Source: a virus
Virus record (IMG/VR): IMGVR_UViG_3300045988_036809
Reading direction: 5' to 3' (one strand)
DNA length: 60,458 bases
Shown: piece after piece, positions 27,133 through 27,290 of the stretch
Position numbering within the stretch: the stretch's first letter is position 1
Layout of the letters: each line of letters starts with the position of its first letter
The notes under the pieces: generated by a model
The model's database searches: none
What the model was told of the DNA's origin: nothing
Seen by the model: the letters and a program-made list of their open reading frames with translations, nothing else
Translations under genes and position numbers: made by a program

Positions 27133-27290
27133 TGATGCGGTGTGGATTTGCACCACACATGGCAATCACTTTTTCACAACAGGTAACACCAATACAGGTT
27201 CCTTTGCCGCCTTTTTAATTCGGCAATTTGTTCTTAACCAAAGTGTGGATTGCCTTATGCTTAAGCGTTTACCTATTCCGCCACGCATCA
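27133..27290 (-). ncRNA. 158-nt type-II-tRNA-like RNA with ~107-nt internal expansion
   Basis: Acceptor TGATGCG/CGCATCA (7 bp). Leu-like D arm TGGCGGAATAGGTAAACGC. T arm GTGTGG-TGCAAAT-CCACAC. Stem CTTAA/TTAAG closes a 23-nt loop, followed by extra hairpins. Confidence 0.5.

Follow-up and report, generated by a model that had tools for sequence, protein, structure and literature searches.

The stretch of viral DNA analyzed here (IMG/VR record IMGVR_UViG_3300045988_036809; 60,458 nucleotides [nt], hereafter the window) looks like a temperate siphophage genome of ~60 kb. This gut phage encodes a terminase, an amidase, a large serine recombinase, an anti-repressor, and methylases, gene orientation is minus strand throughout, and its sole match in a bacterial genome is a close relative inside a Lachnospiraceae metagenome bin. 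Between a serine recombinase/invertase gene (27998–28684) and an HNH endonuclease gene lies a 1.19-kb gene-free stretch (26810–27997) that hosts an array of tRNA-related features, all on the minus strand: in array order, a normal tRNA-Gln(UUG) (27917–27989), a tRNA-like sequence with a 21-nt anticodon loop (27643–27728), another with a 3-nt anticodon loop (27377–27452), a 158-nt element (27290→27133), a further odd tRNA-like sequence (26900–26986), and an int-alpA RNA motif (26831–26899; Rfam RF02996, 46 bits). This study concerns the 158-nt element, which a preliminary description made from the sequence alone had placed at 27133–27290. These coordinates stand, with the correction that the RNA is on the minus strand, its 5′ end being at 27290 and its 3′ end at 27133. 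Positions within the element are given as idx, where idx 1 is 27290, idx 158 is 27133, and the window coordinate equals 27291 − idx. Its tRNA-shaped body is called the chassis, and the structured RNA that this body carries is called the payload.

Structure and Conservation of the 158-nt Element

On the minus strand, the element is laid out as UGAUGCG-UG-GCG-GAAUAGGUAAA-CGC-UUAAGCAUAA-(payload)-AU-GUGUGG-UGCAAAU-CCACAC-CGCAUCA. As in canonical tRNAs, a 7-base pair (bp) acceptor stem closes the molecule, formed by UGAUGCG (idx 1–7; 27284–27290) and CGCAUCA (idx 152–158; 27133–27139); its first pair is U1-A72 and its third A3-U70, and it is followed by an A as discriminator with no encoded CCA, the tRNA-Gln of the array likewise being without one. 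The D arm, already described as Leu/Ser-type, was recovered as Leu-type, namely as U8 G9 followed by GCGGAATAGGTAAACGC; the segment UG-GCG-GAAUAGGUAAA-CGC contains the U8, A14, G18, G19, and 3-bp stem (GCG/CGC) of a canonical tRNA, and the arm itself (GCGGAAUAGGUAAACGC; idx 10–26; 27265–27281), which also carries A15, is near-invariant in all payload classes. The T arm GUGUGG-UGCAAAU-CCACAC (idx 133–151; 27140–27158), whose loop was correctly recognized from the start, has a 6-bp stem and a G at T-loop position 55, where a canonical T arm has a 5-bp stem and the loop U54-U55-C56-R-A; it is preceded by the dinucleotide AU (A131 U132; 27159–27160), invariant in 18 of 18 chassis. In relatives, position 55 may be G, U, or A, with C56, A57, and A58 conserved. 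Because G18, G19, C56, and A58 are kept, the elbow (G19-C56) is preserved while position 55 is free. In translating tRNAs, the base at position 55 is invariant. Its relaxation here fits a molecule that would not visit the ribosome, by analogy with the non-ribosomal (non-proteinogenic) tRNA-Gly of Staphylococcus, which lacks the G18/G19 and U55/C56 set (PMC4574755). Two viral contigs (L122 and L124; 3300022917_000018 and 3300010399_000021) bear an extra hairpin or a long insertion in the T loop at this very position, in the form GCAGGG-U-(insert)-CAAAU-CCCUGC, which looks like a second insertion site of the chassis.

Between the D and T arms lie ~105 nt (idx 27–132). The preliminary description had interpreted this large insertion in a Leu-like body as an expanded anticodon loop; the insertion itself was borne out, but it consists of a vestigial anticodon arm reduced to a 3-bp stub and of a ~94-nt domain that branches at the variable-arm position via a covarying closing helix. 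A canonical anticodon arm would have a 5-bp stem and a 7-nt loop containing U33 and an anticodon; in its place, the D arm is followed only by UUA-AGCA-UAA, a putative mini-hairpin (U27 U28 A29-AGCA-U34 A35 A36; 27255–27264) without covariation. Its stem is invariant and its loop is AGCA or AACA within the class, and 3–11 nt long in sister classes with other payloads. A stem CTTAA/TTAAG with a 23-nt loop, previously proposed for this region, found no support: it shows no compensatory change, is interrupted by C-A in 3/40 and by U-U in 1/40 sequences, and uses C26 of the D stem. The local mini-hairpin is preferred because sister classes without a downstream TTAAG retain it (UUA-loop-UAA). It is presumably a remnant of the anticodon arm, a stub of 3 bp with a 4-nt loop that could not decode.

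The payload proper (94 nt; idx 37–130) is far longer than a canonical variable arm (13–21 nt) and comprises two stacked helices, a hairpin, a pseudoknot, and an internal loop. Its closing helix pairs GGCAAUC (idx 37–43; 27248–27254) with GAUUGCC (idx 124–130; 27161–27167), directly followed by A131 U132 and the T stem, and is replaced in relatives by such combinations as GACAACG/CGUUGUC or GAUGUG/CACAUC. The second helix, CUUU (idx 48–51; 27240–27243) with AAAG (idx 119–122; 27169–27172), is a prediction, paired in 39–40 of 40 sequences with zero double changes. The hairpin UUGCCG-11-nt loop-CGGCAA (idx 65–87; 27204–27226), noted in the preliminary description, is confirmed by variants such as UCAUUG/CAAUGA and UUAUCG/CGAUAA. 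The most conserved motif of the payload, GGUGUUACCUGUUG (idx 101–114; 27177–27190), contributes U110 G111 U112 (27179–27181) as the 3′ side of a pseudoknot, the 5′ side of which is A45 C46 A47 (27244–27246) in the internal loop of the closing stem. Among 40 distinct sequences, pair 47-110 is G-C in 25, A-U in 14, and G-U in 1, with 0 mismatches, and the elements L139 and L147 are identical except at idx 47 and idx 110. This covariation indicates a pseudoknot between the internal loop of the closing stem and the conserved motif GGUGUUACCYGUUG. Mutual information over all column pairs, dominated by two clades, was uninformative except for pair 47-110. Three long invariant unpaired stretches, GGUUAGGAAC, AAGGAACCUG, and GGUGUUACCYGUUG, look like a binding surface or an active site. 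The motif GGUGUUACCUGUUG is also complementary to the D loop AAUAGGUAA, with one double change only (G22-C108 in L102). The corresponding complementary stretches are UUACCUGUU in the 158-nt class, CCUAUUC in the 201-nt class, and CCUAUU in the 250-nt class, at about chance level, and this complementarity may be due to chance. In free energy, the fold is only modestly below that of shuffled sequences (z = −2.2); constraining it to the tRNA shape gives −45.1 kcal/mol versus a free minimum of −46.0 kcal/mol, a cost below 1 kcal/mol.

The limits of the element emerge from comparison with distant phages (terminase ~34% identical), in which blastn aligns only 27292..27132, at ~91% identity, with unalignable flanks; the conserved unit is therefore exactly the acceptor-closed piece. 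The tRNA-Gln of the same array reaches 70–84% identity in those phages, below the 158-nt element. An exact search with the 3′ 26-mer retrieved 43 viral contigs. Payload and D-arm pattern searches, which left the other half of the molecule unconstrained, added many more, for a total of more than 110 viral contigs and 16 gut metagenome contigs with the same payload. The payload was always found within the chassis and never outside it (0 in ~115 occurrences).

Across 15 distinct relatives, 97.8% of the cells in the helix alignment pair, and 20/37 pairs have changed on both sides. Such double changes affect 6/7 pairs of the acceptor, 6/7 of the closing helix, 5/6 of the hairpin, and 3/6 of the T stem. 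In the larger set of 40 distinct relatives, compensatory changes likewise maintain these four helices and one pair of the pseudoknot. The perfect 7-bp acceptor TGATGCG/CGCATCA and the T helix, whose conservation in related phages had been named as the check to be made, thus passed it with compensatory changes. With 18 distinct chassis from all payload classes, of which three were collected with a pairing filter and are to that extent biased, 98.6% of the cells pair and 10/16 pairs are double-changed, a result reached by 0/500 shuffles. The D stem does not vary in the 158-nt class and covaries in the 201-nt class (AUG/CAU in L080, ACG/CGU in L082), and the T arm is perfect in 42/42 occurrences of the class pattern. 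Because acceptor pairing was never imposed at collection, sequence selection does not explain the pairing. Moreover, many pairs are G-U; read from the opposite strand, they would turn into C-A mismatches, and this identifies the minus strand as the RNA strand. Very probably, the element is a structured RNA under selection, with a chassis of tRNA type, in agreement with the earlier view of a type II, Leu-like body of shared design rather than a random pseudogene, which its compensatory conservation supports.

These data bear directly on the idea that the element is a decaying tRNA pseudogene filled with junk, or a DNA-level feature such as an attP core or inverted repeats used by the serine recombinase/invertase encoded at 27998–28684. 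TRNA finders do miss it: ARAGORN gave no tRNA or tmRNA (transfer-messenger RNA) call for the element, and the Rfam tRNA model RF00005 gave no match at E ≤ 10. The window encodes both a DNA invertase and a large serine recombinase, phages frequently integrate into tRNA 3′ ends, and some relatives are visibly broken. On the other hand, an identity of ~91% ending exactly at the acceptor ends next to unalignable flanks, compensatory changes in five helices together with strand-specific G-U pairs, and a payload orientation that is constant at all loci examined all speak against this idea. The attP hypothesis in particular was tested with a degenerate 26-mer, which in an exact-pattern search of 185,579 species genomes matched a single contig, a window-like phage contig in a Lachnospiraceae metagenome-assembled genome. 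As this sole match is phage-like, the 3′ end was not copied from a host tRNA. We give this explanation hardly any credence. Two further readings were tried and rejected. The plus-strand open reading frame (ORF) at 27140–27295 (51 aa) is broken by 1–3-nt indels in relatives, and a blastn-short comparison of the element with the window, made for antisense matches to the phage genome, gave only chance 9–11-mers.

A Common Chassis with Exchangeable Payloads

The chassis is not restricted to one payload. We propose a family in which a Leu-like chassis carries about ten unrelated payloads of roughly 50–200 nt in phages, for total lengths of 88, ~104–124, 141, 155, 200/201, and 250 nt in addition to the present 158. 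Members are defined by U8 G9 followed by a D arm of the form GCGGAAnnGGUARACGC, a closing helix abutting AU and a 6-bp T stem, a T loop of the form U-N-C-A/G-A-A-U, often UGCAAAU, and complementary 7-nt ends; the window element, 17 other distinct chassis, and elements of cultured Firmicutes phages all conform to this definition. The flanks common to all classes amount to ~27 nt on the 5′ side and ~29 nt on the 3′ side. All classes place the payload at the variable-arm position, with its terminal closing helix directly adjoining AU and the T stem. Exchange is apparent among phages with 95–99% identical terminases and 100% identical neighboring genes, which carry the element at a length of 158, 201, or 250 nt, the break points being idx 27/28 and idx 129/130. 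The other payloads are also structured: the 250-nt version has closing and long-range helices with several compensatory changes, and the 201-nt version has three helices, one of them a loop–loop pseudoknot, which are kept between gut phages and the Enterococcus phage EFDG1 at 71% identity. Different payloads also occur within single phages, as two elements ~1.2 kb apart in L052 and L056 and as three elements in L050.

Unannotated members were found in cultured phages. Enterococcus phages of the EFDG1 group have one in their tRNA array (201-nt class, at ~46,500–46,700 in EFDG1, NC_029009), directly after a tmRNA-like sequence recognized by eye only, from its GGGG...UUUCGAC 5′ end and T-arm 3′ end; the Lactobacillus phage ATCC 8014-B2 has one between two tRNA-Arg genes (~42,400–42,510); and others are present in Latilactobacillus, Brochothrix, and Bacillus phages. 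A literature search for a natural phage tRNA scaffold with payloads retrieved no description, which is not proof of absence. The family appears to be undescribed and missed by current annotation, and its elements appear to be a variant of tRNA-like non-coding RNA.

The conserved chassis is itself invaded. In L009 (6772–7359), its 5′ 19 nt are followed by a 195-aa HNH ORF and then by the 3′ junction of the 201-nt class, and L029 likewise has an HNH gene inside the chassis; in EFDG1 (L095, 278–911), a 5′ fragment of tRNA-Leu precedes an HNH ORF, which is followed by an intact tRNA-Leu(TAG). The conserved chassis or tRNA thus seems to be a homing site for HNH endonuclease genes.

Such arrangements recall introns. 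Group I introns are classically found in bacterial tRNA-Leu(UAA) genes; like the present element, these genes are Leu-type tRNAs interrupted by a structured RNA that varies between close relatives and occasionally contains endonuclease genes. Hence, the element might be a real tRNA-Leu gene from which a small self-splicing (group I-like) or otherwise excised intron is removed to yield a decoding tRNA. Apart from this precedent, the Leu-like D arm, the U that is the last chassis base before most payloads, the HNH genes inside the chassis of L009 and L029, and a presence/absence pattern among near-identical phages resembling intron mobility would all agree with it. However, the ~27 and ~29 nt that would be the shared exons lack an anticodon arm when joined and form no complete tRNA, so no decoding tRNA is possible; the insertion is outside the anticodon loop; and the element has no group I core. 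The Rfam Intron_gpI model had no match in the 158-, 201-, or 250-nt versions, nor did any group I or ribozyme model, at E ≤ 10 and with short stretches included. At ~105 nt, the insert is also far below the smallest group I introns, of roughly 200 nt, no guide sequence for the 5′ junction is visible, and the HNH gene of L009 has replaced the 3′ half of the D arm together with the payload, which is an insertion scar rather than an intron ORF. We consequently regard an intron as very improbable. A stretch of the 201-nt payload, GCAGACUAAC, resembles the R element of group I introns; it pairs with an upstream AGUCUG in the wrong order and had no model match, and was dropped.

The core of the 250-nt payload (UAAUCAG..., GUAAAACGAGGCGUCGGNACACGCCUAU) extends beyond this family. 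It occurs at 96% identity over ~30 nt in lambdoid phages of Escherichia coli, for example, in Enterobacteria phage IME10 (L093; NC_019501, ~16,000–16,230), where it lies between Q and the holin gene within a different tRNA-like closure (TGTGGTG/CGCCACA); this unannotated form is present in 155/5426 complete E. coli genomes. In the jumbo Pseudomonas phage D6 (L094, 571–770), the same core lies in a tRNA array without a tRNA chassis and with its two motifs in swapped order, suggesting, as judged by eye, a circular permutation.

That observation is relevant to a further explanation, in which the payload is a small ribozyme or a ligand-sensing domain acting in cis on the array transcript, by self-cleavage, release, or switching, with the chassis as a folding platform only. 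A compact payload (~94 nt) that contains a pseudoknot along with long stretches of invariant, unpaired bases does resemble an aptamer or small ribozyme, a type II hammerhead is present in the window (32239–32308), and circular permutation, here apparent in the chassis-free core of phage D6, is a habit of small self-cleaving ribozymes. Yet no Rfam ribozyme or riboswitch matched, no cleavage site can be named, and the permutation, judged by eye, concerns another payload class. More generally, the Rfam 15 covariance models, applied at gathering thresholds and at E ≤ 10 to the array and to the 201- and 250-nt relatives, yielded no payload match. We hold a cis-acting payload to be unlikely.

Predicted Maturation and Relation to Known RNAs

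The best explanation, to which we assign a probability of about 0.6, is that the element encodes a non-decoding, tRNA-shaped RNA with an intact type II Leu chassis, a stub anticodon arm, and a payload in place of the variable arm. The RNA would be co-transcribed with the phage tRNA array; RNase P would recognize the chassis and cut the 5′ end at 27290; the tRNA 3′-end machinery would trim the transcript and add CCA after 27133; and the product would be a stable, correctly folded RNA of ~158 nt. The payload would then be the working part, acting in trans and most likely by binding a host or phage factor. Payload exchange, exact at the chassis borders, would presumably proceed by recombination through the ~27-nt and ~29-nt chassis arms. 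That the chassis works via tRNA processing enzymes has, in our view, slightly better than even odds, by analogy with an engineered chassis made of acceptor, T, and D arms with an insert replacing the anticodon arm, which is processed and stabilized by the bacterial tRNA machinery (PMC3753655). Any specific function proposed for the payload deserves low confidence; our guess is that frequent payload exchange among near-identical phages is typical of accessory or counter-defense functions.

Several observations weigh against this explanation. Expression of the 158-nt RNA is a prediction from sequence, and a promoter and terminator scan was uninformative, revealing no clear promoter or terminator bracketing the element. 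Efficient processing by RNase P and CCA addition is only assumed, because CCA is not encoded and the first pair is U1-A72. The 6-bp T stem, giving an acceptor branch of 7 + 6 bp, and G55 may make the elbow differ from that of a true tRNA. RNAalifold predicts an alternative pairing of the D region with the payload motif (idx 12–27 with 104–118), which may form in this class. Finally, some relatives are wrecked, with an HNH gene in the chassis (L009, L029), a truncation (L057), or a deletion (L220), and the RNA is therefore accessory and dispensable in at least some phages.

A decoding tRNA was rejected: an anticodon loop is lacking, the discriminator (A in the window) is U or C for most relatives that share the payload, and acceptor sequences differ wholly among these relatives, none of which encodes CCA. 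In contrast, a tRNA mimic that can be aminoacylated, serving as a non-ribosomal amino acid donor, as a decoy for a synthetase or for a toxin directed at tRNA 3′ ends, or as a mini-tmRNA-like molecule, would make the chassis itself the active part. The window copy keeps A73, A14, A15-U48, G18, and G19, which are known identity elements for the E. coli leucyl-tRNA synthetase (LeuRS). LeuRS does not read the anticodon. The D arm is near-invariant across classes, the element of EFDG1 directly follows the tmRNA-like sequence seen by eye, and T-loop position 55 is not U, as in the Staphylococcus non-proteinogenic tRNA-Gly (PMC4574755). However, A73 is not conserved, and relatives that share this payload differ in both discriminator and acceptor, so that they have no one synthetase identity in common; the payload, which never occurs without the chassis, equals or exceeds it in conservation, and a pure decoy would have no need of this. 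We find such a mimic rather improbable.

The comparison with tmRNA (SsrA) is instructive in this respect. In tmRNA, too, the ends form an acceptor and a T arm around a large pseudoknotted insert, tRNA enzymes process the molecule, and phages encode it; it has no true D stem, however, and its alanine identity pair G3-U70, tag reading frame, and length of 260–400 nt are all absent from the 158-nt element (A3-U70), in line with the negative ARAGORN result, so that a tmRNA was discarded. With type II tRNAs (Leu, Ser, Tyr), the element shares the D-arm sequence, the 3-bp D stem, A15/U48, and a helix just 5′ of U48, and differs by having no anticodon, a branched and pseudoknotted "variable arm" of 94 nt versus 13–21 nt, and a 6-bp T stem. 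The bacterial Y RNA-like YrlA, also found in phages, is a non-coding RNA in which a tRNA-like D/T elbow is likewise accompanied by a functional module of its own. Its topology is inverted: both RNA termini belong to the Ro-binding stem, and a loop caps the acceptor-like stem. The YrlA model of Rfam did not match the 158-nt element.

The closest natural analog is the T4 species 1 RNA (rnaC, 139 nt), which together with species 2 RNA (rnaD, 119 nt) is also a stable non-tRNA RNA in a phage tRNA array. Both T4 genes adjoin the homing endonuclease gene segB, and the T4 record labels them only as "small, stable RNA." At its end, rnaC has a canonical T arm (CCGGG/TTCGAAT/CCCGG), after which comes a strand with partial complementarity to the 5′ end. 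By contrast, rnaC has no sequence similarity that we could find with the present element and no recognizable D arm, only 5/7 of its acceptor pairs form, and no family of exchangeable payloads is known for it. A function is not known for rnaC. The closest man-made analog is the tRNA scaffold engineered for recombinant RNA expression by Ponchon and Dardel. In that scaffold, acceptor, T arm, and D arm are kept and a foreign structured RNA replaces the lower part of the tRNA via a closing helix, the rationale being that the bacterial tRNA machinery recognizes, precisely processes, and protects the product (PMC3753655). The insert of the engineered scaffold replaces its anticodon stem-loop, whereas in the 158-nt element an anticodon stub survives, the insert abuts U48 and the T stem, and position 55 is relaxed.

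More tentatively, a single tRNA-Leu-derived chassis might serve phages of Firmicutes, and possibly of Proteobacteria, as a natural cassette for the expression and stabilization of at least about ten classes of structured RNA payloads, several of them pseudoknotted, which would be swapped between co-infecting phages via the chassis arms and act as counter-defense or accessory RNAs binding host factors, the T4 species 1 RNA being a distant functional cousin; we consider this possible though doubtful as a whole. If the RNA is expressed as predicted, phages had the tRNA scaffold trick long before RNA engineers, and a recognizable chassis marks many new structured RNA domains in viromes, offering a cheap handle on RNA folds and possibly also on RNA-based counter-defense or host-takeover factors. 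The whole family escapes tRNA finders and Rfam, an annotation gap. Because unannotated members exist in cultured Enterococcus, Lactobacillus, Latilactobacillus, Bacillus, and Brochothrix phages, the family is directly testable, and it opens a comparative route to the role of the non-tRNA stable RNAs in phage tRNA clusters, such as T4 species 1 and 2.

Other Features of the Array and of the Window

The three tRNA-like sequences that neighbor the 158-nt element (27643–27728, 27377–27452, and 26900–26986, minus strand) are conserved with compensatory changes, and for this reason the whole array does have the appearance of a deliberate set of tRNA-shaped RNAs that do not decode, each built differently. 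In the first, a 5-bp anticodon stem carries a 13–21-nt loop that contains the conserved motif ACACACCCCA; the ARAGORN call is Val(tac) in the window and "Stop(tta)" in L007 and L008. The second combines a 5-bp stem, itself showing compensatory changes, with a 3-nt loop. In the third, the palindrome GUGCGCAC becomes GAGCGCUC in relatives. At the array position of this last sequence, a window-like phage from a Lachnospiraceae bin (L077, 6585–6666, minus strand) has a tRNA to which ARAGORN assigns a four-base anticodon (gcgg), possibly a tRNA of the frameshift-suppressor type.

The int-alpA motif adjoins the last tRNA-like sequence, lies directly upstream of the HNH endonuclease gene (26030–26809), and also trails the array in L004 and L039; nothing relevant turned up in a literature search on int-alpA. 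At the other end of the array, the 188-nt spacer located 3′ of tRNA-Gln contains a 57-nt piece (27818–27874, minus strand) that is 87–89% identical in the distant phages L007, L008, and L010, where its order relative to tRNA-Gln differs. Within this piece, the hairpin GAGCCGUCACAAGGCUC, with a U-rich tail behind it, resembles a terminator.

The 27 proteins scanned included no RNA ligase, RtcB, or CCA enzyme. A ~530-nt gap that separates minus-strand ORFs holds the type II hammerhead ribozyme (Rfam RF02276, 62 bits), which is on the plus strand, opposite to every gene. Two other genes are split, both on the minus strand: a C-5 cytosine DNA methylase occupies two ORFs (46351–47178 and 47366–48304) that are ~190 nt apart, the second of which starts with 120 non-methylase residues, and a PAPS-reductase domain extends over two overlapping ORFs (50144–50821 and 50799–51347). 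An insertion, an intron, or a frameshift could account for these split ORFs.

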